Origin: an uncultured Chloroflexia bacterium
Lineage (GTDB): Bacteria > Chloroflexota > Anaerolineae > CG2-30-64-16
DNA length: 64,000 bases
Direction of reading: 5' to 3'
Assembly (NCBI GenBank): GCA_963810095.1
Contig: CAWEMM010000006.1
Location: 1,419,353 to 1,483,352 of the forward strand
Positions within the stretch are counted from its first letter, which is position 1, and each line of letters opens with the position of its first letter. A program made the translations under genes and the position numbers. The notes beneath the pieces were generated by a model, which had not been told where the DNA came from, did no database searches, and worked only from the letters and a program-made list of their open reading frames with translations. This document shows positions 8,822 to 59,705 of the stretch, piece by piece.

Positions 8822-10987
8822 ATGAGCCGTGGCCGTCGGACTTATCTCTACAGCGTGGCCTTGTTTGGCCTCGTGGCTTCGCTGGTCAGCCTGGTATCCT
8901 TCTTGTGGCGGTTTTTCGCCGCCCGCGCCGTGGACCTGCTCGGGGCGTCGCCCCTGACCGGGGTGCTGGACTCGCCCGCGCTGCCCTGGCTGATACTCTT
9001 CCTGCTGACCCTCGCCACGTGGCTCTATCACATCATCGCCGCAAACCGGGCGGCCCGCCCGCTGACCATGGCCGGGGCCGCCGAACGTGCCGCGCCCGAA
9101 CGCAAGATGTACCTCTACATGGGGCGGCTGGCTGTTGTGGCGGTCCTGGCCGGACAGGCCTGGCTGCTGATCCGCCACGTGGCCGTTGCATTTCTCGACA
9201 ACGGCGTTGCCGGCTTACGGGCGGGCAGCGGGTGGACCTTGGCGCTGGCCGCGGGGATCGTCGTCGCCCTGGGTTACTACGTCTACCTGCGCGTCGAGGC
9301 GAGCCGCGATGGTGACTTGGGTCAGGAGCGGGGCAAGGCGGTGCTTTGGCGGAGGGCGTACACGTACGCGGCCGCGCTGGCCGGCGCGCTGCTGACATTC
9401 CTCGGCGGCGGCGAGTTGATCCGTGCGGGGATCCGGGTCTTGATGACGCCGCTGAGCCGCGACGTGACGTGGCATGGTCCTGCCGCGGCTGCGCTTGGGG
9501 CGCTCGTCGTCGGCTTGCCGCTAAGTGCAGCGGCCTGGGGCGCGGCGAACCGGGCCGCGACCATGAACGCGCCCTCGGAGACGAACGCGCTCAGCCGGGT
9601 GCTGCTGCGCTACGGCGGCGTGCTGGTGGCGACGCTCGTCACCCTCGTGGCGTTGGGCTACCTGGTCGAGCAGATCATCCTGACTGCCATCAGCCGGCCG
9701 GTCGGAAATGCAGGCCGGGCCTTATTCGGCATGTTCGACTGGACCTGGGCGCTGGCCTACCTGCCCGTGGCCGCGCTGATGTGGATCAGTTTTTCGGGCG
9801 GCGCGCGGACGGATGCGCTCTGGGGTGGTGAGAAGCCGCGCACGGGCGGCATCCGCCGGGTTGTCCGCTACCTGCTGACGGCGATCTCGCTGGTCGCCTT
9901 CTGGTACGGCTTGACGGAGTTCACGCGGCTGATTCTCCAGGTGTTCCTGGGCGCAGACTCGGCCACGGGCAGCGCGGCCGAATGGGTCCAGCGCTTCGCG
10001 ACCTCGGCGGCGTTCCTTCTGATTGGCGCGCCGGCGTGGTGGGGTCACTGGTGGTCGCAGCAGATGCGCGTGCGTTCGGAGAACTACGAGAGCCGCGGCA
10101 CAGCCGTGAGCGAACGGGGCTCGCGGGTGCGGCGTGTCTACCTGTGGGGGGTTCTGCTGGTGGCTGCCGTGGTGGTCGTCGCCGCGTTTGGGTTCGCCGT
10201 GGTGCTGGCGTTGAACTGGCGGTCGGCCGGCAACCTCGGCGGGGTGCGGGCTGCGGTGGCGGGCGCCGTGGCCGCGGCAGTTGTTGCCGCGTTCTGGGCA
10301 CTCGTCCACGGCCTGGTGTTGAGGAGTGACATGCGTTATCTGTCGCGGGGCCAAGCCGCCGGCGCTGCGGAGCCCGTCATCGTCGCACCGCTCGTGCCGG
10401 CGGCTGCGGCTGCTCCGGCCGGCATCGGGCCTGTCGCAGCGGCCGCGGCCGTCGCCGGTGTAAGCCGGGCGGCGCCGGGCGGGACGCAGCCCCAGCCCCT
10501 TGCCGAGAGCCGCGAGTATCGCCGGGAAGACCTGGCGCCGCTGGCCGCGCAGGCGGGTTTGGACGTCGTGGCAGGAGGGGCAACACCCGCCCTGGTCATC
10601 CTGGACGGTGCCGATGGCGCGCTGGGCGCGCAGCTGACAGCAGCGCTTCGTTCCGCATTCCCGACCGCAGCGCTCTGGCCGGTGGGGTTGAACGAGGTGG
10701 CGCACATGGCTATGCTGGGCGCGCTGGGCCAGGAGCCGCCCGTCCTGCCCGACGATGCCTTCGACCGGGCCGCGGGCATCCTTGCGCCGTCGGACGTGCT
10801 GATCCCCGGTGCGTTGGATGGGCAGGTCACTGCCGAACTGGTCGAGGCGCTCGCGCGGACCACCGCCCGGATCATGCTGCTGCCCCCGCACGACGCCCGG
10901 CTGCGCTGGGTGGCCGCGCCGAATTGGCCGGTGGAGCGCTGGGTGGAAAACGCGGTGATCGAAGCGGGAAACGTGCTTGGGGCGTAA
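8822..10987 (+). CDS. hypothetical polytopic membrane protein with internally repeated TM modules and a C-terminal soluble domain
   Basis: 721 aa; repeated units beginning R..YLY / MYLYMG / YTYAAAL / VRYLL / VYLWGVL each followed by hydrophobic helices; RBS GAGGAGG upstream. Confidence 0.6.
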   Translation: MSRGRRTYLYSVALFGLVASLVSLVSFLWRFFAARAVDLLGASPLTGVLDSPALPWLILFLLTLATWLYHIIAANRAARPLTMAGAAERAAPERKMYLYMGRLAVVAVLAGQAWLLIRHVAVAFLDNGVAGLRAGSGWTLALAAGIVVALGYYVYLRVEASRDGDLGQERGKAVLWRRAYTYAAALAGALLTFLGGGELIRAGIRVLMTPLSRDVTWHGPAAAALGALVVGLPLSAAAWGAANRAATMNAPSETNALSRVLLRYGGVLVATLVTLVALGYLVEQIILTAISRPVGNAGRALFGMFDWTWALAYLPVAALMWISFSGGARTDALWGGEKPRTGGIRRVVRYLLTAISLVAFWYGLTEFTRLILQVFLGADSATGSAAEWVQRFATSAAFLLIGAPAWWGHWWSQQMRVRSENYESRGTAVSERGSRVRRVYLWGVLLVAAVVVVAAFGFAVVLALNWRSAGNLGGVRAAVAGAVAAAVVAAFWALVHGLVLRSDMRYLSRGQAAGAAEPVIVAPLVPAAAAAPAGIGPVAAAAAVAGVSRAAPGGTQPQPLAESREYRREDLAPLAAQAGLDVVAGGATPALVILDGADGALGAQLTAALRSAFPTAALWPVGLNEVAHMAMLGALGQEPPVLPDDAFDRAAGILAPSDVLIPGALDGQVTAELVEALARTTARIMLLPPHDARLRWVAAPNWPVERWVENAVIEAGNVLGA

Positions 10988-11055: not shown

Positions 11056-12315
11056 CTACTCCTGCAGGCACTTGAGACAGTAATCCACTTCTTCGCGTGT
11101 GTTGTAGTGCGCCAGGCCCGCGCGCACTACGCCGCCGCTTTCTTCGATCCCCAGGCGCTCGGTGACGGCCAGCGCATAGAAGTTGCCCGACCATACATAC
11201 ACGCCGCGGCGAGCCAGGTGCTCGGCCACCTCGTCCGGATGCTTGCCCGCGAGCCGGAACGCGGCCGTCGGGGTGCGCCGGTCGAACTGGCTTGGATCGG
11301 CGATGCCGTAGAAGGTCAGGCCGGGGATGGCCCGCAGGCCCTGGGCGAAGTGCGCGAACAGGTCCCGCTCATACGCCTTGATGGCGGCCATCGCCTGCTT
11401 CAACGCCAGCCGGCTGCCTGTGAAGCCCGGGAATTGGCCCTCAAACTCGCCTCCGCACATGCTCCCGAGCTCGGCCAGATACTCGACCGCGGCCAGAACG
11501 CCCGCCTGCGCCTCGTGGGCCTGGGTGCCCGTCTCGAACTTGTCGGGCGACGCGTTGCCGGCCGGACGCACCTTGTAGGCCCGCAGCTGCTCCAGAAGCT
11601 CGTGCCGGCCCCACAGCGTGCCCGAGTGCGGGCCGAAAAACTTGTAAGGCGAGCAGATCAGGAAGTCGCAGCCGAGCGCCTGCACGTCGACCGGACCGTG
11701 CGGGACGTAGTGCACCGCATCGACCCATAACCATGCGCCGGCCGCGTGAACCAGGCGGGCAATCTCGGGGATCGGATTGACCGTCCCGACCGCGTTCGAG
11801 GCGTAGCCGACCGCTACGAGCTTGGTCTTGGGGCCGAGCTTGCTCTGCAGGTCGTCGAGGCGCAGCGTGCAGTCTGCCGGGTCGAAGTCGACCTCCTTGA
11901 CCACAACCCCCTTTTCGGCCAGCGCAAGCCAGGGTGCGCGATTTGCGTCGTGGTCGAGCTTCGTGATGAGCACCTCGTCGCCGGGGGCCAGCTCGCGGCC
12001 GATGGCCCGGCTGACGGCAAACGTGAGCGTGGTCATGTTGGCGCCGAAGACGATCTCGGCGGGCGAGGCCGCGTTGAGCAGATCGGCCATGGCCTCATGC
12101 GCGGCGTGCAGCACTGCGTCGCTCTCGCGGGAGGTGCGGAACGCGCCCCCATGGTTGGCGTTCGATCGGATGAGGTAATGCGCCATCGCATCGATCACGC
12201 GCTGGGGCACCTGGGTGCCGCCGGGTCCGTCGAAGTAGACGGCCGGCCGGCCCGCGTCGACCAGGGCGAGCGCGGGGAACTGGGAACGGACGAAGGAAAG
12301 GTCTAGCTGAGACAT
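11056..12315 (-). CDS. cysteine desulfurase-like aminotransferase class V protein (cysteine desulfurase / selenocysteine lyase family)
   Basis: 419 aa; PLP-lysine region SPYKFFGPH; overall class-V aminotransferase fold. Confidence 0.75.
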   Translation of the reverse strand: MSQLDLSFVRSQFPALALVDAGRPAVYFDGPGGTQVPQRVIDAMAHYLIRSNANHGGAFRTSRESDAVLHAAHEAMADLLNAASPAEIVFGANMTTLTFAVSRAIGRELAPGDEVLITKLDHDANRAPWLALAEKGVVVKEVDFDPADCTLRLDDLQSKLGPKTKLVAVGYASNAVGTVNPIPEIARLVHAAGAWLWVDAVHYVPHGPVDVQALGCDFLICSPYKFFGPHSGTLWGRHELLEQLRAYKVRPAGNASPDKFETGTQAHEAQAGVLAAVEYLAELGSMCGGEFEGQFPGFTGSRLALKQAMAAIKAYERDLFAHFAQGLRAIPGLTFYGIADPSQFDRRTPTAAFRLAGKHPDEVAEHLARRGVYVWSGNFYALAVTERLGIEESGGVVRAGLAHYNTREEVDYCLKCLQE

Positions 12316-12354
12316 GGTTTGCTCCTGAAGGGATAGACCGTCGCATCTTACCCA

Positions 12355-12427
12355 AGAAACCCGCTTTCTGCCAGAACCACCTTTAGGAAACCAGGTTTCT
12401 CCGAGAAACCGGGTTTCTGCTCTCGCA
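12355..12427. promoter_or_regulatory. array of three operator-like palindromes (AGAAACCcgcTTTCT, GAAACCaGGTTTC, AGAAACCgGGTTTCT) followed by a TATAAT box in a divergent intergenic region
   Basis: Directly visible inverted repeats with GAAACC/GGTTTC arms; TATAAT at about 12421. Confidence 0.45.
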
Positions 12428-12475
12428 TGCTATAATGGCCCGGTCAGACGATTCTCCTGCAAAGAGGTTAACCTC

Positions 12476-13063
12476 GTGGCTACTCAAGTTCGCCTGTTCG
12501 TCAGCGCGGGACCGGCTGAAGAGGGGGCGAGGGAACACCTGGGCCGGGCGCTTGCGGAGCTGCCCATCAGCGTGGGCTGGGTGATCAAGCGCACACCCGA
12601 CGTCGACTCCGTGGCCGAATGCCACCTGTTCGCGGTGCTACTTGGCCGCGATATCGCCGCGCCGGTGGGGCTCGAGCTATGGTGGGCGCGGCGCACGGAG
12701 AAGCCGGTGCTGGCCTATACGGCCGAAGGGCTGCGCACGCCGGCCTGCCAGGTGTTCTTCCAGGACAACTTCTACCTCGACTGGCACCCATTTCCCGATG
12801 CGGTGAGTTTGCGGCGCCTGTTCCTGCTCGACATCTGCCGCTTTCTCCTCGCCCACGACGAGCGGTATGGCGTGACCGTGGTCGAGACGGAGGCGCTGCG
12901 CGGCTTCATGGCGCGATTGGAAAAGCCCGCAGCGGTCGTCCCCGGCCGCGCTCCGGCACGGGAAGGCCCCCTGGCCAGGCCCCAAGGCGCAGGGGGCGGG
13001 GGCGTGATCCTCGCGCCGGGCAAGGACACCCCGCGCGGTGCACGCATCATTGGCGAGGAGTGA
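12476..13063 (+). CDS. hypothetical protein
   Basis: 195-aa ORF filling the intergenic gap, GC3-rich codon usage; no recognisable motif. Confidence 0.4.
   Translation: MATQVRLFVSAGPAEEGAREHLGRALAELPISVGWVIKRTPDVDSVAECHLFAVLLGRDIAAPVGLELWWARRTEKPVLAYTAEGLRTPACQVFFQDNFYLDWHPFPDAVSLRRLFLLDICRFLLAHDERYGVTVVETEALRGFMARLEKPAAVVPGRAPAREGPLARPQGAGGGGVILAPGKDTPRGARIIGEE

Positions 13064-17358: not shown

Positions 17359-17361
<3 letters not shown>
16568..17361 (-). CDS. class I SAM-dependent methyltransferase; apparent frameshift near 16885
   Basis: VLDLGCGNARF SAM-binding motif in one frame; conserved C-terminus (PLIVSTWQF...YAVLHLP) in ORF 16568..17260 frame. Confidence 0.6.
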
Positions 17362-19095
<1,734 letters not shown>

Positions 19096-26819: not shown

Positions 26820-27468
26820 TTACAGGAACACGAGCCCAAGACGGGTGGCGCGAACGACGGCTTCCGTGCGACTTGCCACGCCGAGCTTGCCAAGGAGGGC
26901 GTTAACGTGGAACTTGACCGTGTGCTCGCTGATGTCGAGCCGCTGCGCGATCGTCTTGTTGGGCAGCCCCTCGGCGAGGAGGCGCAGCACTTCGAGCTCG
27001 CGGGGGGTTAGCTCTTCTATCAGGGCCGGCTCGTCGCCGCCGAACGGCGGCGCGGCTGCCGTGACCGGTGCGGCGCTCAGCACGGAGCGGAACGCGGTAT
27101 CGAACAGGGACAGACCTTCGGCTGCAGCATGCAGCCCGGCGGCAATCCGGGCTGGCGGGGCGTCACGGGCCAGGACGCGCGGGCGCGCCGGCGGCCCACG
27201 CGGCCCGGGCGTCCGGCTCGTCGTTCACCAGTGCGACGACGGGGAGGCTCTTTGGGGCCTCGGCGAGGTGGGCCAGCGCGATCTCCGGTTTCCAGCCCAT
27301 ATCCCAGAGCACCACGTCGGGCCGGTGAGCGTCCAGCTCGGCCCCCAGGTCATCGCCGGCAACCCGGCCGGCAATCGACAGATCGGGGAGGTCGGCCAGC
27401 AGGACGGCCAGGCCGGCGCGTGCCAGCGGATCGTCCGCGACGATCAGGACGCGTAGCGCGCTCATGCC
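26820..27468 (-). CDS. NarL/LuxR-family response regulator; apparent 1-nt indel near 27175 in a GCGCGCCCGCGCG run
   Basis: Receiver domain ([12 protein letters not shown]...D...) in one frame; LuxR HTH ([22 protein letters not shown]...SEHTVKFHV) in ORF 26820..27083; upstream in-frame continuation [14 protein letters not shown] links them. Confidence 0.65.
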
Positions 27469-34320: not shown

Positions 34321-34999
34321 CTAACTGTCAGTGAGACGGTAGCTTGCGGGCAAAAGTTCCTGGTGCTCCAGGAGCAGGTCGCGCACCTTGGCGCGCGCGC
34401 GAGAGCCGCGATTTGACGGTGCCCAGCGCCGCACCGGTCGCATCGGCGATCTCCTGGTAGTCCAGGCCCTCGACATCAGACAGCACGAGTGCGGTGCGCT
34501 GGTCGGGGGGCAGCTGGCTGATCGCCGCCTGGATGGCGACGGCCAGCTCCTGGCGCATCGCATGATCCTCGGGGCGCTCGCCGCCGTCGATCAGCCGGGA
34601 GTCGTACTCGGGATCGTCCTCGTCCTCTTCGCTTTCGAGCGGAGTGGTGGGCCGGCGCTTGCGTGCGCGCAGCGCGTCGTAGCAGGTGTTGGTAACGATC
34701 CGTAGCACCCACGACTTGAACGAGCCCCCGCGGTACTGGCCGAGCCGTTGATAGGCTTTAATGAAGGCGTCCTGCGTGGCGTCTGCCGCAAGGTCGGCAT
34801 CGTTTGTGAGCCGGTACGCGATGTTGTAGGCCAGGCTCTGATAATGGAGGATCAGTTGGTTAAATGCCGGAAGGTCGCCGCGCTGGGCCGCGGCCAGCAG
34901 TGCGGCTTCGTCGTATTCCTGCCGTCCGGGTCCGCGGCCGCGCGGACCGCCCGGCCACGCGTCGTGGTAGCCCTCGTCGCGCACCGATGTGGTCAGCAC
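34321..34999 (-). CDS. ECF-type RNA polymerase sigma-70 factor; apparent indel near 34390 in a GCGCGCGCGCG run affecting the last ~20 codons
   Basis: Region 2 and region 4 motifs (ILHYQSLAYNIAYRL, DYQEIADATGAALGTVKSRLSRAR); alternative C-terminus LSRARAKVRDLL in ORF 34321..34563. Confidence 0.7.
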
Positions 35000-35232
35000 G
35001 ACGAAAGATGCCCTGGCGGGCCAGGCTAACGCCTGCCACAGCCAGGCTGGCGCTCCTATGATATTCCGGGCCAGATCCGTTCGCGCCACGCTCGGGAATC
35101 CGGCCTAAAAAGCTCAGACATTCACCCCACCAGTTACCACAACATGCTGCAATGGGTGCTGCAGACTGCCGGCACTCGCCCGCAATTCACATCACCGGGA
35201 AAGCCGTGATCAGTTACAAGACGAACAAACTT

Positions 35233-40391: not shown

Positions 40392-42888
40392 ATGCCGCCA
40401 TTGGTGAAAGCAACCGCCGCCACGCTAAGCGCCACCCTGACCGGCGTTGGTCGCGCCCGCCGGCCCACGCTGAAAGGCCATCTGCGACTCCCCGAGTTGA
40501 GCGGCCCGGTCGAGGTCTTTCGGGATGCGTGGGGGGTGCCCCATCTCTACGCCGGCAGCGCGGCGGATCTCTGTTTCGCGCAGGGCTTTGTCCATGCCCA
40601 GGACCGGCTTTGGCAGATGGATTTCCAGCGCCGCCTCGTCGCCGGCCGGCTGGCCGAGGTATTGGGGCCGGCGGTGGTGGGCGTGGACCGCAGCCTGCGG
40701 GTGCTCGGCATGTACCGGGTGGCAGAGGCGGAGGTAAGCCTCCTGAGCGCGGAGGCGCGGCGAGAGGCTGAGGCCTACGCCTCGGGCGTCAACGCGGCCA
40801 TCGAACGGCAGCCGCTGCCGGTCGAGTTCACCTTGCTGCGCTACCGGCCTTACCCTTGGCGAGCGGCGGACTCGCTGTGCTGGGCGAAGATGATGTCATG
40901 GGCGCTGTCGGTCAACTGGGAGAGCGAGCTGCTGCGCGCGAGGCTGATCGAAGTGCTGGGCGTAGAGCGGGCCGCGCAGCTCGAGCCGCTGCTGGCAAGC
41001 CCGATTGTAACGGGGGGCGAGCGGCGTCCCGCGCACCCCTACGGGCCGCTGCCGCCGCGGAATGCGGCGCAAGGACGTGAAGGGGCCGCTCAAGCCGACA
41101 GCGCACCAGAAATCCACATGCCTTCCACGCCGGGCACCCCCGGCAGCAATAACTGGGTCATTGCTGGCGCGCACACGGCCAGCGGCAAGCCCCTTCTGGC
41201 GAACGATATGCACCTGTTGGTCTCCGCGCCGGCCATCTGGTACGAGAACCACCTTGTCTGCACCGATCCCGGCAGCCCGGTCGACGTCACCGGCGTTTCA
41301 TTTCCCGGGATTCCTTTTGTGGTCGCCGGGCATAATGACCGCGTGGCCTGGGGCTTTACCAACGGCTTCCCCGACGTGCAGGACCTGTTTGTCGAGCACC
41401 TCCGCCGGACCGAGCGCGGGGTGGAGTACGAGCACCGGGGCCAATGGCTGCCCGCCGAGGTGCGGCGGGAGGAAATCCGGGTCAAGGGCGAGGCCGCGGT
41501 AACGGAAGAAGTCATCGTCACGGTCCACGGGCCGGTCATCAACCGGCTGGCGGTGGGACTGGCGATGCAGCCCGGCGCGGACGGTCTGCCTGAGCAGCCG
41601 CTCGCGTTGTGCTGGACCTCGCTGACGCCCCACCCAATGGTGGAGTCGCTGCGGGCCATGAACCGGGCGAGTTCGTGCGCCGAGTTCCGGGAAGCCTTGC
41701 GCGGCTGGGTCGCGCCGACCCAGAACGTGGTCTATGCGGACACGGACGGCAACATCGGCTACACCTTCGCCGGTCGAGTGCCGATCCGCCCGCGGGGCGA
41801 AGGCCGCGTGCCCGCGCCGGGCTGGACCGGCGAGTATGACTGGGCAGGCTGGATTCCTTTTGAGGAATTGCCGCACCAACAGAACCCGGCCGAGGGCTAC
41901 ATCGTGTCGGCCAACAACCAGCCGGTCGACGAGAGTTATCCGTACTTCATCGGGCGGGAGTTTGCCCTGGGCGACCGGGCCGGCCGGATTGCCGAGCTCA
42001 TCCGCTCGGGTTCCGCCATCAAGCCGAGCGACATCCGGATCATGCAGCTGGACCAGGAGGCGTCGTCGCTGAAGCGGCTCGCGAGTGTCTTGGGCGGGCT
42101 GGAGCCCTCCGAGCCGGAGCTGCGGGGCTTGGTGACCCTGGTCAGGGCATGGGACGGCCGGCTGACGGCGGAAACCCCTGCGGGCACGATCTGCGAGATC
42201 AGCGGCCCGCGAGGTGCAGATGCTGGTGATGAGGGCCGTGTTGGGCGAAGCCGGCGTTAGCGTGACGCCTGAGAACCCGATTCCCCTCGTCGAACGGGTG
42301 TTGGGTCGCGGGCCCACCCCTGGGATCCAGGACTTTAGCGCTTTCTATCACCGAGTTTGGGAGTGGCTGTACTCGGTGTTGGAGGAGCCGGCGTCGGAGT
42401 GGTGGGATCTGGGGGGCGGCGAGACGCGCGACGACGTGCTGCTGGTTGCGCTCCGGCGCACCTACGACTACCTCGCCGACCGACTGGGCCAGCCTGACCT
42501 GCCCGGCTACGCACAATGGGCGTGGGGCCGGCTTCATACCGTGACGTTCGGGCACGTTGCCGGGCAGGCCCCCACGGTGGCGCGCCATTTCAATCGCGGC
42601 CCGTACCCGGTCGGTGGAGATGAAAACACGGTGTTTGCGACCGGCGGCGGTGTGACCCCCGAAGCCAGCCGGGCCGTGGTCGCGCCGCCCTTCCGCTTCA
42701 TCGCGGACCTGTCCGACTTGTCGCGCTGCTACGGCTTGCTGGCCCCGGGCAACTCGGGGCGACCTGACAGCCCGCACTATGATGACCAGGTTGAGGCGTG
42801 GTTCAAGGGAAAGTATCATCCGATGCTGTACAAGCGGGAGGATGTGGAGCGGGGCGCCCGGCGCAAGCTCATTTTGGCGCCGGCATAG
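40392..42888 (+). CDS. penicillin amidase / penicillin acylase family (Ntn hydrolase, S45); apparent frameshift near 42200
   Basis: SNNWVIAG nucleophile motif and family-typical N-terminal region; C-terminal 220 aa in ORF 42214..42888 frame. Confidence 0.75.
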
Positions 42889-49075: not shown

Positions 49076-49170
49076 GGGGTGCTCCGTTCACGTACTTCGG
49101 GCGGATTATAGCATACGGTCCGACGCCCACCAAGGCATCTTCATTCCGTTTCGCGTGTGTGTTATGATGA

Positions 49171-51416
49171 TTGCTCCCTATGGCACGCAGCATCGTCGAT
49201 CTAAGCACCCTTCCATGGCGTTTCGGCCAGGTCGCCCGCCAGGGCTTTTCGCACGCGGCCGAGCGACGACCGGCGCGCGGTCGCCAACTGGGAACCCGCG
49301 TCAGTCCCCGGCGACGTGCGAGCGGATCTGCTGGCGACGGGATATCTGCGCGGCCTGGATACACCGGAGGATCTTCCGCGGTCAGGCTGGGTGGACAGCG
49401 TCGACTGGTGGTATCGGGTCGATATCGATCCGGTCGAACCGGGAACCACGGTGGTTCTCGAAGCCGACGGGATCGACTACCTCAGCAGCGTGTGGCTGGA
49501 TGGAGAGTTTCTGGCCGCGCACCAGGGCATGTTTGCGCGGCAGGCACTCGTGCTCCCGCCGCCGCATGGAGGCGCCCGGGAAGCACGAGCTGGCGGTGCG
49601 GATTTGGGGCGCGGGTGCGCTGCCGCGCCTCCCCAACCCTCCGCTGCGCCGGGGCCTGCGCCGGCTGATCTGCGGCCTGGGTGTCGTCGACGAATACTTC
49701 CCCGATCGCCTCGCCACCCCCAAAGCGCAATACAGCTTCGGGTGGGACTTCGCGCCGCGCGTGCTGAGCACGGGCATCTGGGACGGCATCCGCCTGGTCC
49801 ACTGCCGGGGCGCCTATCTTTCCGACGTGCAGGTGCTTGCCGAGCCGCTGAGCGAGGGCGACCCGACCCCTGTCCGCTGGACCGTGCGGCTTACGACCCG
49901 GCGATTCGAGGAGCAGCGGCTCACTGCGCGGGTCGAGCTGCGCACGCTCGAAGGTGAACGGATCCCGCTGGCGCGCGATACCTTCGCGTTGGGCGAGGGC
50001 AATGCGGCGGACCTGGTCTTTGATTCGCCGCGACTGGCCCGCTGGTGGCCGTGGGACCAGGGTGAGCCGGCCCTCTACCGCCTTTCAGTTCGACTGTTCG
50101 ACGAGCGCGGGCCGGCCGACGAGGCGGAGACGGTGGTCGGGCGTGCGCACGGTGGGCCGCGAGCGCTTCAAGAACGGGCAGCCCTGGCGTTTCACGGTCA
50201 ACGGCCGCTCGGTCTTCCTGCGCGGGGCGAACTGGGTGCCCGCCGACATCCTGCCCGGCCGGGTGGCCGAGAATGACTATGCCGGCCTGATCGGGCAGGC
50301 GCGGGCCGGGGGGGTCAACTTCCTGCGGGTGTGGGGCGGCGGCATCCGCGAGAAGCCCGCGTTCTGGGAGCTGTGCAACCGGCAGGGCATCCTGGTCATG
50401 CAGGAGTTCCCCCTCGCTTGCACGTTCCTCGATCACTACCCGCGCGATCCGGGCTACCTCTCCGTGCTCGAGTCTGAGGCGCAAGGCATCGTCCGCGGCT
50501 TGCGCAACCACCCAAGTCTGATCGCCTGGTGCGGGGGCAACGAGATCAGCCCGCAACGTGAGCGGCTTCCTCTGCGTACTATTGAGCGGGTGCTGGCGCG
50601 CGAAGACCCCGGCCGGCCCTGGATTCCGGCTTCTCCGTCGACAGGGCGACATCCACAACTGGGACGTGTGGCATGGCGGCGCGCCCTGGCAGTCGTTGGC
50701 GCGGGTTCGCGCCCCGTTCATGAGCGAGTTCGGCGTGCAGGCGCTGCCCCATGCCGACACCATCGCCGAGATGTTTCCGTCGGGCCCGCCCACGCGGCTG
50801 GACGATGCCGGGTGGGCCGCGCGCAAGCTGCAGGCCGACAAGCTGCGTCACTACTGTGGGCCCTTGCCCGAAGAGGACCTGGTAGCCACGATTGAGGCTA
50901 CTCAGAGGACGCAGGCCGCGGCTCTGCAGGCGGGGATCGAGGCGTGCCGGCTCCGCCGCGAGGGCTCGGGCAGCCCGCGCCCATGCGGCGGGCGTGGCCT
51001 TCTGGCAGTTCAATGAGCCGTGGCCCGCGGTCTCCTGGTCCCTGGTCGACCGGCGCGGCCGGCCAAAGGCGGCCTACAGTATGCTCATGCGCAGCTACCA
51101 ACCCCTGCTCGTGGCGGCCGTGTTCGAGCGGCGGGCATGGCGGGCGGGCGACCGGTTCGACGCCGAGATCTGGGTGGTGAACGACGGGGCGGAAGAAGCA
51201 GCAGAGGGCGAAGTCGAGGCGCTGTTGGACGGGCGCAGCGTCTGCCCACGCAGCCGCGTCGCGGCGCCTCCCGCGTCTGCCCGGCAGGTTGGGGCATTCG
51301 GCGTGCAGTTGGCGGGGCCCCCGGCCACCCTCGCGTTGGCGTGGCGGGCAGGCGGTGCGGTTCTTGCCGCCAACGAGTATGACCTGCAGGTCTACTTGCC
51401 GCCGCCGCAGCCCTGA
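49171..51416 (+). pseudogene. glycoside hydrolase family 2 beta-mannosidase-like gene interrupted by five apparent +1 frameshifts (true pseudogene or sequencing indels)
   Basis: Colinear conserved segments in frames 1,2,0,1,2,0: WEPASVPGDVRADLLATG, HELAVRIWG, WRFTVNGRSVFLRGANWVP, GDIHNWDVWHGGAPW, PRPCGG/VAFWQFNEPWPAVSWS; no internal stops within segments. Confidence 0.6.
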
Positions 51417-51507
51417 TGGGTTGGCTGATGCGCCGCGCCGGCGAACTGCTGCTGCAAATTGGTTGACACATCGGGGTCGTTTCGGATATCCTCGCAAGCA
51501 GATAAAA

Positions 51508-52550
51508 ATGCGGATAGTCGTCAACGGCTGGTTCTGGGACCGGATGACCGCCGGCAGCGGGCAGTACCTGGCCGCGCTCGGCAGCCGTCTTGCCGCGCGC
51601 CGGCTCGGCGCACGAGTTCATTCTGGCGCTGCCGGCGGCGCACGAAGGAGCCGGCGACGCTCGCTCGAGGGTGGCGCACCGTGCGGCGCGGGACGCCGTT
51701 CGACGCGGCTGCAGCGCAGAACCTGGCCAAGCTGTGGTTCGAGCAGGTCACGTTTCCCGAGCTTGTGCCGCCGTCTGGGGGCGGACGTGGGTTTCGTGCC
51801 CTACTGGGGCTCGCCCTGGGCGCGGCCCTGCCCGATGGTCGTCACGGTGCACGACCTGATCCCGCTGCTGCTGCCGCTGTACCGGGGCGGAAGGCTGCAG
51901 CGGATGTACACCGCGTCTCGTCGGCGCGTACGGCTCGGCGGGCCGCGGCGGTCGTGACGGATTCAGAGGCCAGCCGCCGGGACATCGTGGCCCATCTCCG
52001 CGTGCCGGCAGAACGCGTGCATGCGGTCTATCTGGCGGCGGGCCGGCTGCGAGCTGGGCGCGGACGCCGGACGAGCGCGGCCTTCGCGGCGCGCTTGAAC
52101 CTGCCCGGCGGGCCGTTTTTGCTGTACCTGGGCGGCTTTGACGCACGCAAGAATGTGCTGCGGACGCATCGAAGGCTATGCGAAGCTGGCTCGAGCGGCG
52201 TGGCCGCCGAGGGGGCCGAAGCGCCGGCTTCTGGTCGATTGCGGGCCGGCTGCCCGCGGTCGACTCGGACTTTGCGCCGGATCCGCGGCCGGTGGTCCGC
52301 TCGGCTCGGGCGTGGCGGACCGTGTTCATTTTGCCGGCTGGGTGGACGAGGCAGACAAGGCCGCGCTGTACCGGCATGGCAGCAGGCGTCCTGTTTCGTC
52401 AGCGAGTATGAGGGGTTTGGCCTGCCGGTGCTGGAAGCGATGGCCTGCGACCGGGAAAAGAGATCCACGAGACCTGGTAGGTTCAAGCAACCAGGTCACC
52501 AGCTGCGAGATTGGGGAGTCCTGGTGACTGAACCGTGCGAAGACTGAATC
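51508..52550 (+). pseudogene. GT4-family (GT-B) glycosyltransferase shattered by multiple frameshifts
   Basis: MRIVVNGWFWDRMTAGSGQY, VHDLIPLL, GGPFLLYLGGFDARKN, FVSEYEGFGLPVLEAMAC segments in different frames. Confidence 0.5.
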
Positions 52551-52559
52551 GCGCGGGCC

Positions 52560-53672
52560 CACAACATCCTGACGCGCACGTTCAGCCTGCGGCGCGACCA
52601 GAACCTGCTGATTTTCGCCGACGTCGCGTCGCTGGAAGTGGTGGAAGTGGTGGCGCGGGTGGCGCGCGAGCTCGGCATCAACGACGACCGCGTTTTTCGT
52701 GCCCGCGGGTGCTCCAGCTCGAGATGGGGCCTAACGAAAGCCTGCCGCTGCCTGCCGAGGCCGCGGTGCGTGAAGCCGACGCGATCCTGAGCTGCCTGTC
52801 CGACCAGCCAGAACACCTGCACTATCGGATGCGCGTGCTGCACGCCAGCTGGGGCCGGCGGGCGCAGGCTCGGCCCACGCGCCCGGCATGACGCTCGAGA
52901 TCGCTGCAGCACGCATCGACACCGACTACGCGGCGATCAGCCGAGCAGGCCCAGCTGCTGAGCCTCGCGCTGATCCTGGGCAAGCGGGTCGAGATCGTCA
53001 CGACGGACAGCCAGCGCCGCGAGCACCGGCTGAACGTGCGGGTCGGCGGCTGGGACTATCCGCCCGGCATCAACGACGGGACGATTCGCGAGGGCGCGTG
53101 GAGCAACCTGCCGCCCGGCGAAGTCTACATCGTGCCGCGCGATGGGGACGGCCAGATCGTCGTCAACGGCTCGATTCCCGGCAAGGTGCTGGGGCCGGCG
53201 GAGGAGCTGATCCTGACTTTCCGCGAGGGCCGGTTGGTCGACGTGGAGCCGGAGGATGTGCCCGCCGCGCGTCATCTGCACGAGACGCAGATCGCCTACG
53301 CGGAGCGCCGCGGCGACACCAACTGGTCGAACCTGGCCGAGGTCGGCTTCGGGCTGAATCCCGCGGTGCAAGACCTGACCGGCCTGGGCGATCGTGGACG
53401 AGAAGAAGGCGCACACGGTTCATGTCGCGGTTGGGCACAGCGCCGGGCTGGGCGGCGACGTAGATTCGGTCATCCACTGCGACATGATCGCCAAGAAGCC
53501 GACTGTCTACGTCAACGGCCGGCTCGATCATGAAGCGGGGCGACTGGCGCATCAACGAGGCGGACTGGCGGCTGGATCACCGCACGGTGACGGTGCCGGT
53601 CGGCTGGTGGGAAAGCATGGGGCAGATTGGCGCGGAGCGGCGCCGCGCACCGAGCGTGAGTCGGGCCGGCTG
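52560..53672 (+). pseudogene. M29-family aminopeptidase (AmpS/PepS-like) with multiple frameshifts
   Basis: Segments LLIFADVASLEVVEVVARVARELG, GWDYPPGINDGTIREGAWSNLPPGEVYIVP, KKAHTVHVAVGHSAGLGGDVDSVIHCDMI in shifting frames. Confidence 0.45.
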
Positions 53673-53976
53673 ACATGCGTGTGGAATGCGGGCCGGGGCC
53701 GGTGGGACAGCGCGCCGGTTGGCGTGGAGCAGACGGCGCGCCTGGCCGCTCGCGGTGTACGACCTGCTGCCCGAGAACGGCGTCCCGGTGGGCAAGGCGC
53801 GCGTGGTCGCGCTGGCCGAGCAGGCCGGGCATCCCGTGCGAAGCGCTGCCGCGGCCTGTTCTGGATCATGCTTCAGTTCGACCTGGTCCGGATGTCGCGG
53901 CGCGGTGCCGAGCCAATGCCGACGTAGACCGGAGACGTCGAAGAACGAGGGGTCGTGGATAGCTGGGGAGAGCATC

Positions 53977-55530
53977 ATGACCGCAGTCAAGACCCCGTGG
54001 CGTCAATCGATGCCGGATTTCCTCCAGTTTCTGGATGGAACGCTGGGACACAAGGTCAAGCTCCACAAGGAAGTGCTCGGCTATGACCTGTATCTCGTCG
54101 ATCTTTCGGACTGGAAGCTGCGCTTCTCCGACCGCACGCCCTTGATCATCGTCAAGGAAGCGCGATCTGGCGTCGATGAGTGCCCGCGAGCTCGCGCAGA
54201 GCCTCGCCGAGGTGGTCCGCGGCCAGTCGCTGGCAGAGCGCAACCCCATCGTCGTCGTGCAGGGACCCGGCAGAGCGAACTCAAGGAGCAGCTGCACGCC
54301 GACGTACCAGCCGCTGCTGGTGCTGGACGAGGCGGACGTGCAGGCCGTGCGCGAGTCGCGGCGGCCCTCGGGCGAATTGCTCGACCGGCTCGCGCCGCAG
54401 CTCGACCTGTCGCTCCTGACGCCCTACGAGACGAGCAAGCCCGTCACCGGCTCGCGCTTCTTCGGCCGGGAGTTCGAGGTGCGCCGCATCCTGCAGACGC
54501 GGCGACAGCAATTTCGCCATTATGGGCATCCGGCGCATCGGCAAGACGTCGCTGATGCGCGAGATCGAGCGCCAGCTGAAGGAGCAGGCGCAGGAGGCCG
54601 AGAGCGAAGAGACGCTGGAGCGCATCATCTTTATGGATTGCAGCGCCATCGCGTCGCCCGAACAACTTCATCCAGGAAGTCGTGCGCAAGCTGCGGCCGC
54701 AGGAGCTGACGCGGCTGTCGTCCAAGCAGTACCCGATCTTCTTCCCCGATTTCCTCGAGCGGATGGCGCAGCGCTACGGCGGCCCGATCATGTTCTTCCT
54801 CGACGAGTTCGACAAGGTGCTTACCTGGCACTACGAGGACGACTCGCTGCTCAACGCGCTGCGGGCGTCGAGCAACCAGGGTCACTCGCGCTATATCGTC
54901 GGCGGCTTCCGCGATGTGATGCGTGCGTTCAGCGACCTGGAATCGCCCCTGTACAACTTCGCGCGGCCCATCCGCCTCAAGGAGTTCAGCCGGGAGCAGG
55001 CCGCGGCGATGATTCTCGGCCCGCTGGAGAAGTTGGGCGTGCAGTTCGAGCGCCGCAACGACGTGGTCAACCGCATCTTCGACGAGACCGCCGGCCAGCC
55101 GAACCTGATCCAGTTCTACTGCAGCATCCTGGTCGAGCGGCTGGACCGCGAGGGCAGCCGGCGCATCGCATCGCTCGCCCGAGAGCCTGTTCGACGTCTA
55201 CGGCAACGACGATTTCCGCGCGTTCGTGCTCAGCACCTTCATGGATAACACGACGCACCTGGAGAAGGCGATCGTGTTTGCGGTGATGGCGGACCTGGGC
55301 GCGGAGCATCCATTCGGCGTCCAGCAGATCGACGGCGCGCTCGAACGTCGCGGGCGTCGAAATCCCGCTGTCCGACCTGGACCTTGCCTGCCGCAACCTG
55401 GAGCTTGGCGGGCACCTTCACCTCGCGCGGGCCGATGTTCCGCTTCGCGACGCCGGTTTTCCCGCGCATGCTGAGCGAGAACTACGACGTAGACTACCTG
55501 TTCCGCAAAGTGCTGCAAGAGGGCATCTGA
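53977..55530 (+). pseudogene. archaeal-type AAA ATPase (Arch_ATPase/ATPase_2-like) with multiple frameshifts
   Basis: FFGREFEVRRIL, GIRRIGKTSLMREIERQL (P-loop), PIMFFLDEFD (Walker B) across ORFs 53686, 54176, 54522, 54682. Confidence 0.45.
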
Positions 55531-55532
55531 CA

Positions 55533-58386
55533 ATGAGCGCTAGCATCGAAGCCTGGCGGATCGTTCCCTACGAAGGAGGCGCATCGCCCGTTCAAGAAGG
55601 TGCGGGTGCGCGACGAGGCCGCGGGTGCGCGCGGTCGTGCGGCACCTGATGAACGACGAGTGCGTCGCCTTGCTCGGTCCGCCCATGAGCGAGAAGAGCC
55701 ACCTGCTGCGGGACGTGGCGGAGGCGCTGGAGCAGGGCGGTCGCTTCCGGCCGCTGCATATCGACTTGTGGCGCACACGATCGAACGATGAGGCCGCCTT
55801 CTTCACCAGCCTTGCCGAGTCTGCTGGCCGACGAGCTGCGGGACGCCGGCGCCGCGAGTCCCGACGAGCCGGCCGAGCACGCGCGGTTCCAGGGTTATCT
55901 CGCCGCTTGCGAATGCGAGCGGCCGCAGCCTTGCGCTGCTGATCGATCACCTGCAGGCGCTGCCGCACGACCTCGTCCACAGCCTGCTGCGTCGCCCTGC
56001 GCGCGGCCTACATGGAGCGCGAGGCCGACGCGCCGCACAGCCTGGTCGCGGTGGTCACCGGCGGCATCAACCTCGTCGGTCTGTCCGTCCGGCCCGACCT
56101 CGCCGTTCAACATCGCCAAACCCGTGGTCGCGACACCGCTGACCCTCGAACAGAGCCGCGCGCTGGCCGAGGCGACGCTCAAGCGCTGGAGTGCTCGGCA
56201 TCCGCCAACGGCATGGACCGCTTGCTGAGCCTGGGCGCAGGCGACCGGTACCTGATTCCGCGGCTCTGCGCCGACAGCTCCGAACTGGTCAGCTTGCACC
56301 GCCTGCACCGCGTGACGTCGGCCATTGCGGATCGCGCCGGCGCGGGCGCTCGTCGCCCGCGGACGCGGCCGCCGCCCGTTCGCGCCGCCATCCGCATGAT
56401 CGAGGAAGACCCGGACACGGTGCTGGACGTGCTGCACCTGCTCGACCACGGCTCGCTGCCGCGCTCACGCTCGCGCCAGATGCCGACGCGCACCGGCACG
56501 GACCGGCTGCAGCTCTCGGGCGCGGTGGTCCTGGTCGGATGGGTGCTACGGCTTTATGAACGAGGCGTACCGCGAGGCGTTGGCCGCGCACTTCACCACC
56601 GACCGGGTCGGGCACATGTTGCGGATTGCCGGGCCGGTGGAGCGAGGCGATCGCCTATCTCGCGCCGCAGCGGGCGCGCGTCGCGCGTCCGCAGCTGCTC
56701 GAAGCCATCGTCCAGATCGATCTATGCGAGCTGACTCGTCCGAACAGGCGTATCGGGCTGCTGGCCGACGGCCTGCGGCTCGGCTTCGGCCTGTCGGACA
56801 TCGGCATCTACTGCGGCGCTGCCGGCCGACTGCTCAGCTCGACCGCGTCTATCCGCCCAAGGACGGCGGCCCGAGGAGCACGTCGACCTGCGCGATCCCG
56901 GGTGCGTCGAGGCCCAGACCTTCAACCTGGGCAACTATGCGCTGCGCGGCACCGCGGATGAGGCGCGCCTGGTCGTCGCGCTGGCATCGGCCAGCCGGCC
57001 GCTCGGCGTCGTGACGATCGAACGCTATGTGCAGAACCGCGATCCGCACGAGCTGCCCGACGAACTGCCCGACCTGCTGCGTTTCCTGCAGCACGCAGTC
57101 CGGGGCGCTGGAAAACGTCATCACTCGGGCTGCCTACCGCGCCATCGGACAGGCCGTGCTGGATGCCAAGGCCATGCAGCCGACCGTGGAGCGGGTGCTC
57201 GAGACGGTAGCGGAGGCGCTTGGGCTGCGACTACGGCGCCCTGTATCTGCGGGATGAGACCGCCGCCAGCTGGAGATGGCCGCAGCAGTCGGCAGGGTGG
57301 TGACGGAGGAGTGGCAGGCGCAGGCGCGCTTTCCCCTCGACGGCCGACACCCCGCGGTCACCGCGCTGCTGGAGGGGCGGATGTTGACGGCGCGAGGGGG
57401 CGAGGACGCAGAGGACCGCGTGCTGCACGACCGTTTCGGCCTGCACCGCTACCTGCGCGTCTTCCTGCCTCTGCTCGCCGGCGGCGAACAGCTCGGCACG
57501 CTCGAACTGGGCTACGCGAGCCGGCCGCATGCGCATGTCGGATGAGCTACAAGCGGACGCTGGTCGAGTTCGCCGACCAGGTGGCGATCGCGGTGCATAA
57601 CATGCTGCTGCTGCGGCGGACGGACGAGGCGCTGGCACGCGCAAGCTGGCCGAGCTTGTCGGTGGGCCGCGAGATTCAGCTCAGCCTGCTGCCGAAGGTC
57701 ACGCCGACCGTTCCCGGCTGGCAGTTCGCGGCCATGTACGAGGCCGCCCGCACCGTCGGCGGCGACTTCTACGACTTCTGCGAATTGCCGGGTCCGCCCG
57801 CATCGGCTGGGCGTCGTCATTGCCGATGTGGCGGACAAGGGCGTGCCGGCCGCGCTGTTCATGGCGGTCAGCCGGACGATCATTCGCAGCGTCGCGCTTC
57901 ACCGGCCGCGGCCCGGCCGTCTGCCCTGATGCGAGCGAACCAACTGATTCTCGCCGACAGCCAGGCCGACCTGTTCCTGAGCGCGATCTACCTGGTGCTC
58001 GAGACCGACAACGGGCGCGGATTTCGTTCAGCAACGCGGGGCACAACCGGCCGCTGCTGGTACCGCGCTGCGGACCGCGCAGCTCACGCGAGCTGACCCA
58101 GCGCGGCATCATCCTGGGCGCGTTCGACGAGATCACGCTGCAGGACGACACGGCTGGACCTGGCCGCCGGCGACGTGCTGGTGCTGTACACGGACGGCGT
58201 CACGGACGCGCTCAACGCGGACGGGCGAGGAGTTCGGCGAGCAGCGCCTGTTCGACGTGGTGCGGGGCAGCGCCGCACGGCAGCGCGCAGGAGATCCTGT
58301 GGGCGATCACGGGCGCGCTGGCGGGCTTCATCGGCGACACGGAGCAGGCGGACGACGTGACCTGCGTCGTGATCAAGAAGGACTAG
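55533..58386 (+). pseudogene. large regulatory protein: degenerate P-loop NTPase-like N-terminus, GAF domain, PP2C/SpoIIE-type phosphatase C-terminus; many frameshifts
   Basis: LLGPPMSEKSHLLRDV, LALLIDHLQAL, GAF-like DYGALYLRDE..., PP2C motifs [43 protein letters not shown], ends VVIKKD. Confidence 0.4.
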
Positions 58387-58562: not shown

Positions 58563-59705
58563 ATGCCCTGGCGAGAGGCAAATGCCATGTCCTTACGACT
58601 TGATTTCGTGACCCGAGCTGGTCACGAAGCTGCTAACGTGCGGGCCCTGTGCCGCGAGTTCGGTATCAGCCCGAACACTGCGTACAAGTGGCTTGTGCGC
58701 TACCAGGCGGCGGGGCCCGCGGGGCTGGCCGATCGCTCACGGCGCCCGAACGCAGTCCGAGCCGACACGCCGCCCGGCCGCGAACAGTTGGTGCTGGCGA
58801 CGCGCCAGGCCCACCCGGCCTGGGGCGGCCGCAAGCTCAAGGCCTACCTGGAGCAGGCCGGCTATGCGGACGTGCCGGCAGCTTCCACCATCACAGCCAT
58901 TCTGCGCCGGCACGGGGCGCTGGATGACCAGGAGGGCGCTCAGCATCGCGCCTTTCAGCGTTTCGAACGTGAGGCGCCCAACGAGCTGTGGCAGATGGAC
59001 TTCAAGGGCCATTTTGCGCTCGGGGATGGTACGCGCTGCGACCCCTTGACGGTCCTCGACGACCATGCGCGCTTCCTGTTGGCGCTGGACGCCTGTGCCG
59101 ACGAGACCCGCCGCACGGTGCAGGCCGCGCTGACCGGCGTCTTCGAGCGCTACGGCTTGCCCGAGCGCATCCTGTGCGATCATGGGCCACCGTGGGGCGC
59201 CCCCAATGCCGGCGACGTGTACACGACGTTGAGTGCGTGGCTCTTGCGGCTGGGCATCGGGGTCGTGCACGGGCGGCCCAAGCATCCGCAGACGCAAGGC
59301 AAGGACGAGCGATTGCATCGCACGTTGCGGGCCGAGTTGCTGCGCCGGCAGACGTTCGCCGATCTGCCGGCCTGTCAGCCCGCCTTCGATACCTGGCGGC
59401 AGATGTATAATGAACAGCGCCCGCATGAGGCGCTAGCCATGCAGGTGCCGGCGGCCCGCTATCGGCCCAGCCCGCGCCCGTGGCCCGCCCGCCTGCCCGC
59501 GATCGAGTATCCGGCCAGCGACCGAGTGCGCCGGGTGCAAGATAAGGGCCAGATCAAAGTCGGCGGCCACGAGTTTCGCATCGGCAAAGCCTTCATCGGC
59601 TACCCGGTGGGCCTCCGGCCCACGAACCAGGACGGCTGCTATGACGTTTACTTCTGCGCCCAGCGCATTGGCCAAATTCAACTATCCGCCGGGCAACGGA
59701 TTTAG
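58563..59705 (+). CDS. IS481-family transposase (DDE/rve integrase)
   Basis: 380 aa; HTH N-terminus, rve core with HGRPKHPQTQGKDERLHRTL. Confidence 0.85.
   Translation: MPWREANAMSLRLDFVTRAGHEAANVRALCREFGISPNTAYKWLVRYQAAGPAGLADRSRRPNAVRADTPPGREQLVLATRQAHPAWGGRKLKAYLEQAGYADVPAASTITAILRRHGALDDQEGAQHRAFQRFEREAPNELWQMDFKGHFALGDGTRCDPLTVLDDHARFLLALDACADETRRTVQAALTGVFERYGLPERILCDHGPPWGAPNAGDVYTTLSAWLLRLGIGVVHGRPKHPQTQGKDERLHRTLRAELLRRQTFADLPACQPAFDTWRQMYNEQRPHEALAMQVPAARYRPSPRPWPARLPAIEYPASDRVRRVQDKGQIKVGGHEFRIGKAFIGYPVGLRPTNQDGCYDVYFCAQRIGQIQLSAGQRI

Follow-up and report, generated by a model that had tools for sequence, protein, structure and literature searches.

A promoter palindrome array in an Anaerolineae genome is probably a cluster of RAYT-associated REPIN-type hairpins

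The locus and its palindromes

The window analyzed here is a stretch of 64,000 nucleotides from contig CAWEMM010000006.1 (GenBank assembly GCA_963810095.1, positions 1,419,353 to 1,483,352 of the forward strand) of an uncultured Chloroflexia bacterium of the Anaerolineae, with a guanine plus cytosine (GC) content of ~67%. It contains three 15-nt dyads inside a 160-bp intergenic region (12316-12475), between the back-to-back promoters of a cysteine desulfurase-like gene on the - strand and of a gene for a 195-amino-acid (aa) protein on the + strand (Table 1). A preliminary description, in which the flanking genes were correctly given as a class-V aminotransferase gene and a hypothetical gene, interpreted the array as operators cooperatively bound by a dimeric regulator. 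We propose, with a probability of roughly 80%, that the palindromes are instead copies of a family of repetitive extragenic palindromic (REP) sequences, AGAAACC-N-GGTTTCT, which is associated with REP-associated tyrosine transposases (RAYTs) and forms REP doublets that fold into hairpins (REPINs).

Table 1. Repeats, flanking genes and predicted promoter elements at the palindrome locus (window coordinates)
Feature	Position	Strand	Remarks
REP copy 1, AGAAACCCGCTTTCT	12355-12369	.	One mismatch to a perfect dyad; distal copy
Degenerate, truncated REP copy, agaaccaccttt	12373-12384	.	Read from the sequence
REP copy 2, GGAAACCAGGTTTCT	12386-12400	.	Perfect 6-bp arms; 5′ arm of the REPIN hairpin
REP copy 3, AGAAACCGGGTTTCT	12404-12418	.	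Perfect 7-bp arms; 3′ arm of the REPIN; promoter-proximal
REPIN-type inverted doublet (copies 2 and 3)	12386-12418	.	15-bp stem, 3-nt loop (CCG)
Cysteine desulfurase-like class-V aminotransferase gene	11056-12315	-	TIGR01976, 491 bits; context
195-aa protein gene	12476-13063	+	No Pfam or NCBIfam match; context
Extended -10 box TGcTATAAT of the 195-aa protein gene, predicted	12428-12436	+	Conservation in relatives
-10 box TAAGAT of the desulfurase-like gene, predicted	12345-12350	-	Suggested by conservation
-35 box CTGGCA of the desulfurase-like gene, predicted	12369-12374	-	Putative; 18-nt spacer to the -10 box

The region reads ccaAGAAACCCGCTTTCTgccagaaccacctttaGGAAACCAGGTTTCTccgAGAAACCGGGTTTCTgctctcgcaTGcTATAATgg, the 15-mer consensus of the array is AGAAACCNGGTTTCT, and the centers of the three palindromes are spaced by 31 and 18 bp. 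The 13-mer core GAAACCNGGTTTC matches at 12356, 12387, and 12405 with one, zero, and zero mismatches, and its sole further match in the window, at 24710, has two. Three 15-mer sites with at most one mismatch were observed against a mean of 0.00 in 200 block shuffles of the window, and no further 15-mer site with up to two mismatches is present anywhere in the 64 kb; a chance origin of the three palindromes is excluded, and the preliminary description was right both in treating them as non-random and in assigning perfect arms of 6-7 bp to two of them.

Copies 2 and 3 are also mutually reverse-complementary, a repeat search having returned them as 15-nt arms with 93% complementarity at a distance of 1 nt. 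As DNA they fold into one 33-nt hairpin (-11.7 kcal/mol, z = -5.1), whose stem has a single A·G mismatch at the central pair. Copy 1, a “gcc” loop and the degenerate stretch downstream of it may be the remnant of a second inverted doublet; in three orthologous loci (L201, L202, and L205, described below), intact TTTCT-gcc-AGAAACC doublets are located where the window has the decayed one. The array most likely consists of a REPIN at 12386-12418 and a decayed second REPIN at 12355-12384. An Rfam search of the window gave nothing relevant at the palindrome site, and a terminator scan at the locus was negative.

The promoter assignments at the locus are predictions from conservation and are unmapped. 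TGnTATAAT upstream of the 195-aa protein gene recurs in the relatives L201, L202, L203, L205, and L004, and in L001 it is TGcTATACT. The gap between copy 3 and the TG is exactly 9 nt, and the center of copy 3 is at about -32 of the predicted + strand promoter. A sigma-70 consensus scan found no -35/-10 pair at this promoter, which fits a + strand promoter that is independent of a -35 box. The -10 box of the desulfurase-like gene is TAAGAT, TATGAT, TATCAT, or TAACAT in relatives; its predicted -35 box falls where the two arms of the decayed doublet meet (TTTCT-gcc-AGAA), and copy 1 occupies the spacer between the two boxes, so that the palindromes overlap predicted promoter elements on both sides. 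If these assignments hold, both -10 boxes are located outside the REPs and the REPs would be part of neither mRNA.

A family of hairpins across phyla

A metagenome scan for two copies of GAAACCNGGTTTC within 31 nt, that is, for 24 specified bases, identified at least 120 unrelated loci, of which we estimate that far fewer than one would be expected by chance. Among the loci listed, the GC content of the contigs with doublets ranges from 30 to 71%. Several of the low-GC contigs harbor the cyanobacterial HIP1 octamer or pentapeptide-repeat proteins, one high-GC contig encodes a DUF1559/N-methyl protein typical of Planctomycetes, and contigs of Chloroflexota, Cyanobacteria, and Planctomycetota-like origin have the 15-nt REP in the same form. 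The start-to-start spacing peaks sharply at 18 bp (68 cases among the loci listed), as for copies 2 and 3 in the window.

Family statistics were obtained from 82 distinct doublets with a spacing of 18 or 19 among the loci listed. The base before each 13-mer is A in 77 of the 82 and the base after it is T in 76; beyond these two positions the flanks are random, and the 3-4-nt loops vary, with loops of 7-20 nt at other loci. The central N is the sole free position in the repeat, and in 75 doublets the bases that the two copies have there are complementary, which identifies the doublet as one discrete hairpin of ~33 nt with dyad arms. Among 70 aligned doublets, the central pair is CG in 36, AU in 12, GC in 12, UA in 3, and another combination in 5 of 68 cases, and its covariation score was reached by none of 500 shuffles.

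The hairpins are extragenic and biased toward gene 3′ ends. By a crude open reading frame (ORF) call, 75 of the 82 doublets are located outside ORFs and 7 inside; 26 lie between co-directional, 18 between convergent, and 5 between divergent genes, and for the other 26 no gene was called within 400 nt on one side or on both. They are mostly found 5-30 nt 3′ of a stop codon, and at one locus (L157) the doublet follows a tRNA gene. No T-tract follows the stem. When the 2678 ORFs located up to 3 kb from a hairpin were clustered, no neighbor family, whether of transposases, regulators, or other proteins, was common to more than a few loci, with RAYT genes at a few of them. Family-wide, no -10 box is present at a fixed distance from the REP ends; the hairpin therefore comes without a -10 box of its own, and the juxtaposition with a promoter is specific to the locus in the window.

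An Rfam search at 20 family loci gave no match, and a literature search with the exact sequence returned no relevant publication. A phage origin was rejected, as a search of 2.9 million viral contigs with the tandem pattern gave no match, and so was a plasmid origin, for which there were four weak partial matches only, two of them cyanobacterial.

Some contigs are rich in sites: L081 and L122 have 10-14 sites in 12-14 kb, with ten in 13.7 kb at L081. Multi-copy ORFs beside the L122 hairpins were considered as transposases and are glycosyltransferases. The GAAACCNGGTTTC core also occurs in tandem arrays and further repeat families, with a period of 59 nt at L099 (1644-1851) and of ~96-98 nt at L132 (1-570) and L124 (5958-6300), the latter two containing HIP1 and thus being cyanobacterial; high-GC GGGGAAACCNGGTTTCCCC units are repeated with a period of 71-73 nt at L146 (6480-6835) and L151 (7150-7440). 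These five arrays, and the cluster at L081, look like higher-order REP structures resembling bacterial interspersed mosaic elements (BIMEs). At L084, L090, L112, L122, and L128 (Ga0114941/Ga0185317), which belong to one organism with a GC content of 53%, the doublet tips a longer palindrome resembling a miniature inverted-repeat transposable element, which ends in TATAGCGGTTTTC...GAAAACCGCTATA and has many copies between glycosyltransferase genes.

Association with RAYT genes

One cluster of ORFs beside the hairpins (L087, L135, L158, and a fragment at L140) matches PF01797 (Y1_Tnp) and NF047646, “REP-associated tyrosine transposase,” the latter with 70-75 bits, just under the cut-off of 80 bits. 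Doublets are present on both sides of the RAYT gene at L135 and L158, and on one side at L087 and at L140, which is cut by the contig end. The protein family is very large, and many of its members are called “REP element-mobilizing transposase RayT” by the Joint Genome Institute (JGI).

RAYT homologs were also fetched by protein homology, that is, independently of the DNA motif. The Anaerolineae RAYTs P0174 (L206) and P0182 (L207-209) have AGAAACCNGGTTTCT doublets directly upstream and downstream, and RAYT P0219 (L213, on a 6.8-Mb contig) has them on both sides. The downstream doublet at L213, GAAACCaGGTTTCtccgaGAAACCtGGTTTC, differs from copies 2 and 3 of the window at the second central base only, and no doublets beyond the RAYT flanks were found in 20 kb around it. 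Doublets on both sides of RAYT genes are a signature of REP/REPIN elements. In addition, REPINs are present 20-60 nt upstream of RAYT start codons. A RAYT from Poribacteria (L210-212), which is 59% identical to the query RAYT of L135 and 70% to the Anaerolineae P0174, is flanked by another hairpin, AAACCCGTTTTCT-tta-AGAAAACGGGTTT, at 1400-1500 and 2070-2125, as expected if REP and transposase co-vary.

The doublet-flanked RAYTs, which have 189 aa, belong to the HUH/Y1 type and contain the motifs NHYH, LFQG, and YIHLNP. Their sole sequence match in the PDB is 4ER8, the E. coli TnpA-REP, in which NHYH aligns with HMH (HUH) and YIHLNP with YIYINP, which contains the catalytic Tyr. In L206 (1-1434) and L207 (1-1452), the RAYT gene is located directly downstream of recG and upstream of a gene for a conserved 265-282-aa protein without a Pfam match; its position next to recG in two Anaerolineae metagenome-assembled genomes (MAGs) suggests a stable, vertically inherited chromosomal site. 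The evidence from RAYT flanks is that of the family loci, as distinct from the genome of the window itself.

Orthologous loci and the proximal copy

The closest relatives of the window are MAGs of Anaerolineae/Anaerolineales. The orthologous loci at 82-85% protein identity all have REP copies in the same intergenic region, and the comparison of orthologous intergenic regions, proposed as a check in the preliminary description, thus found the sites kept in the closest relatives L201, L202, L203, and L205. The copy number at this site varies from one to five. The window has two intact copies, one slightly imperfect copy and one remnant; L201 has one perfect and one degenerate copy; L202 has two degenerate copies, a perfect doublet, and a degenerate proximal copy; L203 has one imperfect copy; and L205 has a doublet that is cut by the contig end. 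No REP is present in L204 (80% identity), L001, and L004, which keep both genes, and no REP sites were found in L002, L003, L005, and L017. The two -10 boxes are 28-58 nt apart in the REP-free relatives and 78 nt apart in the window, which is consistent with an insertion.

In a five-way alignment of the promoters of the window, L201, L202, L203, and L205, the invariant columns are those of the proximal REP, TGnTATAATG, the ribosome-binding site, and the start codon, and each lineage has a different sequence in the 9 nt that separate the REP from the TG. The proximal REP, which is as conserved as the -10 box and invariant in the five promoters at all specified positions but one, matches that of the window at 14/14 positions in L201 and L205 and at 12/14 in L203, which has a C in place of the second G of GGTTTCT. 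It lies at a constant 9-10 nt from the -10 box in the window, L201, L203, and L205. In L202 the proximal position is degenerate, and an intact doublet is located 21 nt further upstream. At 4-fold degenerate sites of the adjacent gene, identity is 0.41-0.53 against 0.38 expected from composition, so that neutral DNA is close to randomized between these genomes. The retention of the proximal REP despite near-saturated synonymous sites points either to constraint or to repeated targeted insertion or homogenization.

Interpretation and alternative explanations

By analogy with E. coli TnpA-REP and its REPs and with the REPINs of Pseudomonas, a RAYT whose gene is located elsewhere in the genome may recognize the hairpin in the window and copy it in single-stranded form. 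The element is seated in the presumably non-transcribed space between the two predicted back-to-back promoters. A REP in the place of the -35 box can be tolerated at the + strand promoter because this promoter is predicted to be of the extended -10 type, and the junction of the decayed doublet overlies the predicted -35 box of the - strand promoter. The conservation of the proximal copy suggests that it may have a local DNA-level role, through protein binding or as a promoter-modulating structure.

Several observations weigh against the assignment to a RAYT-associated REP/REPIN family. The 64-kb window contains no RAYT gene by tblastn and one REP cluster only, the 3′ bias of the family was derived from crude ORF calling, and in situ conservation of the proximal copy is unlike a purely selfish element at a fixed locus. 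The repeat lacks the GTAG/CGTC tag of the classical REP super-families, although this tag defines tagged super-families and not REPs in general (PMC3733652). Moreover, no REPs were found for the RAYTs of subclass 2.1, whose motifs those described here match, by Quentin et al. (PMC6006769).

Of the alternatives, the one that survives best, although it is doubtful, accepts the REP/REPIN origin and holds that the proximal copy is now a cis-regulatory site of the host, by which the desulfurase-like gene and the operon of the 195-aa protein and a PTPS-related membrane protein are tuned, through binding of a RAYT or another REP-binding protein or through cruciform extrusion. The invariance of the proximal REP, of TGnTATAAT, and of the ribosome-binding site around a scrambled 9-nt spacer, at 41-53% identity of 4-fold sites versus 38% for random expectation, speaks for such a role, as does the constant 9-10-nt distance to the -10 box in four of the promoters (window, L201, L203, and L205), and REPINs are also present upstream of RAYT start codons. 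However, repeated insertion at a preferred target or homogenization by a RAYT could mimic conservation, the proximal copy of L202 is degenerate with its intact doublet displaced upstream, a -10 box at a fixed REP distance is not a family-wide property, and the binding factor is purely hypothetical. It is tempting to speculate that the repeats represent an undescribed cross-phylum REPIN family tied to short, subclass 2.1-like RAYTs, one copy of which has been exapted as a promoter-bound cis-regulatory site under purifying selection with a REP-binding protein, possibly a domesticated RAYT, as the regulator; this composite scenario is unlikely.

A classical operator array, in which the three duplex palindromes are occupied, perhaps cooperatively, by a dimeric transcription factor that represses both promoters, the likeness to REPs being incidental, is very improbable. 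The sites are indeed 7-1-7 dyads such as those bound by dimeric helix-turn-helix (HTH) or Fur-type proteins, the placement of copy 3, centered at about -32 ahead of an extended -10 box, and of copy 1, within the spacer of the divergent promoter, would suit such binding, and the proximal copy is kept in five orthologous promoters with synonymous sites near saturation. However, identical 15-mer doublets are present at at least 120 unrelated cross-phylum loci, mostly after stop codons, with no common neighbor and no regulon pattern, the sites being mainly downstream of genes and rarely (5/82) between divergent ones. The central bases covary between the copies, a pairing that duplex recognition by a dimer does not need, and with a spacing of 18 bp two dimers would not be on the same side of the helix. 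The doublets flank RAYT genes, and the sites are missing from relatives of at most 80% identity in which the two genes and their -10 boxes are retained. Pfam and NCBIfam scans of ~50 window ORFs (flanking and larger ones) found no regulator gene within ~14 kb, the nearest DNA-binding candidates being an 87-aa GerE protein (26820-27083) and an extracytoplasmic function (ECF) sigma factor (34328-35089), and the neighboring 195-aa protein is modeled as flavodoxin-like. The preliminary description thus stands in that the sites are non-random, overlap promoters, and are conserved, whereas its view of them as operators at which a dimeric transcription factor controls a regulon is not supported; what may survive of the operator idea is an exapted regulatory role at the DNA level, for which the odds are rather poor.

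An RNA-level element, such as a terminator, an mRNA 3′ stabilizer, or a structure of the 5′ untranslated region, for which the stable stem, the family doublets 5-30 nt after stop codons and the one after a tRNA gene could be cited, is scarcely credible, because both flanking genes point away from the element, neither mRNA should include the REPs given that the predicted -10 boxes are outside them, and there is no T-tract, no Rfam match, and no positive terminator scan.

Several other likenesses were weighed and rejected. The LexA boxes found in Chloroflexi and Gram-positive bacteria have a different spacing; the RSF1010 oriT inverted repeat was rejected because there is no conserved nic region and the flanks are random; LacI-type GAAAC|GTTTC boxes have no 3-nt center; and a hammerhead core was rejected because C3 is missing in the L132 arrays. 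The parS, Noc NBS, and Hin hix sites were likewise set aside.

Flanking genes and other features of the window

The 195-aa protein is kept in Anaerolineae, with 258 homologs at E ≤ 0.001. A model built from 38 homologs (mean predicted local distance difference test score, pLDDT, 78; predicted template modeling score, pTM, 0.72) comprises a five-stranded α/β domain together with a helical extension and a tail that is disordered. The best fold matches in the PDB are flavodoxin, PurE, and a CMP N-glycosidase, with template modeling (TM) scores of ~0.45, and no DNA-binding fold is among the best 50 matches listed; the model thus points to a flavodoxin-like fold without an HTH, and to a protein that is not a recognizable DNA-binding protein. 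The tail is of low confidence yet carries an invariant GAGGGGVILAPGKD-type motif, and the gene is always located 5′ of genes for a PTPS_related membrane protein and a LysM protein.

Elsewhere in the window, an ORF of 721 aa (8822-10987) is a fusion of DUF5671 and DUF3842, which are encoded by separate adjacent genes in L201 (1-1512), and a bacterial Elp3 homolog, a tRNA modification enzyme with radical SAM and GNAT domains (TIGR01211, 497 bits), is encoded at 17359-19095. A penicillin amidase is split into the ORFs 40392-42260 and 42214-42888, which cover positions 1-501 and 517-674 of the Pfam profile; the split reflects a frameshift, pseudogenization, or misassembly. A glycoside hydrolase family 2-like gene is also split, over the overlapping frames 49155-50276 and 49954-50895, and is followed at 50892-58096 by ~7 kb of ORFs with no Pfam match and a poor coding signal. 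An IS481-like integrase-core transposase (58563-59705) lies beside a fragment of a DUF772 transposase (59757-60338), both being unrelated to REP/RAYT.

Comparison with known systems

The TetR-type regulator PsrA binds the box GAAAC-N2-4-GTTTC, and Fur/Zur proteins bind a 7-1-7 box, tGAAAat-N-atTTTCa. As in these boxes, the present repeat is a 7-1-7 dyad of 15 bp in which GAAA...TTTC takes the corresponding positions, and several sites are spread over a promoter; however, the inner bases differ, no such regulator is encoded nearby, and the distribution of the family, with its post-stop placement, RAYT flanks, and covariation, is REP-like rather than regulon-like. Filamentous cyanobacteria reportedly contain small dispersed repeats (SDRs), described by Elhai and co-workers in 2008 as hairpin-forming intergenic repeats of 21-27 nt that are nested in other repeats, and no transposase is said to have been linked to them; they are set beside the present repeats by this description rather than by sequence.

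The kind of system remains a known one, REP/REPIN-RAYT. In common with the E. coli REPs and BIMEs with TnpA-REP (4ER8) and the P. fluorescens REPINs (PMC3116915, PMC5581495), the present family consists of a short extragenic palindrome, two copies in inverted orientation fold into a longer hairpin, the repeat flanks a single-copy HUH/Y1 transposase gene on both sides, copies are found at the orthologous position in relatives, and clusters or arrays are present in some genomes. This REPtron or REPIN-RAYT arrangement is known from the work of Nunvar, Ton-Hoang, Bertels, and Rainey (PMC3116915, PMC5581495, PMC6006769). By contrast, each REP is here a perfect 15-bp dyad whose own hairpin would be tiny, the copy number appears low in this lineage, the RAYT has only 189 aa, and the same REP sequence is shared across phyla, unlike the usual genus-specific REPs. 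Since palindrome clusters in promoters are easily taken for operators, the assignment to a mobile hairpin prevents a false regulon prediction in annotation.

The motifs of the RAYTs described here fit the second signature of subclass 2.1, NH[YF]H, FQ, and Y[IV]HLNP (Quentin et al., PMC6006769), which corresponds to group 1 of Bertels (PMC6006769, PMC5581495), and by their motifs alone these RAYTs may be regarded as subclass 2.1/group 1-like. Published 2.1 members are longer, with a median of 238 aa and a C-terminal HTH-like extension. The flanks of subclass 2.1, group 1, or TIRYT genes have been reported to contain no REP-like hairpins, or to contain GGGG[AT][CG]A[CG] terminal inverted repeats (PMC6006769, PMC5581495, PMC3733652), whereas the RAYTs of the present family are flanked by a clean REPIN. 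On the other hand, the wide and patchy taxonomic distribution and the low-frequency flanking 16-mers of these groups (PMC6006769, PMC5581495, PMC3733652) are shared with the present system: the flanking 16-mers of group 1 have ~12 genomic occurrences (Bertels et al., PMC5581495), which fits the low density of one cluster per 64 kb in the window and of none outside the RAYT flanks in the 20 kb of L213. The retention of one copy in place over near-saturated synonymous divergence also bears on the host role of REPIN-RAYT systems.

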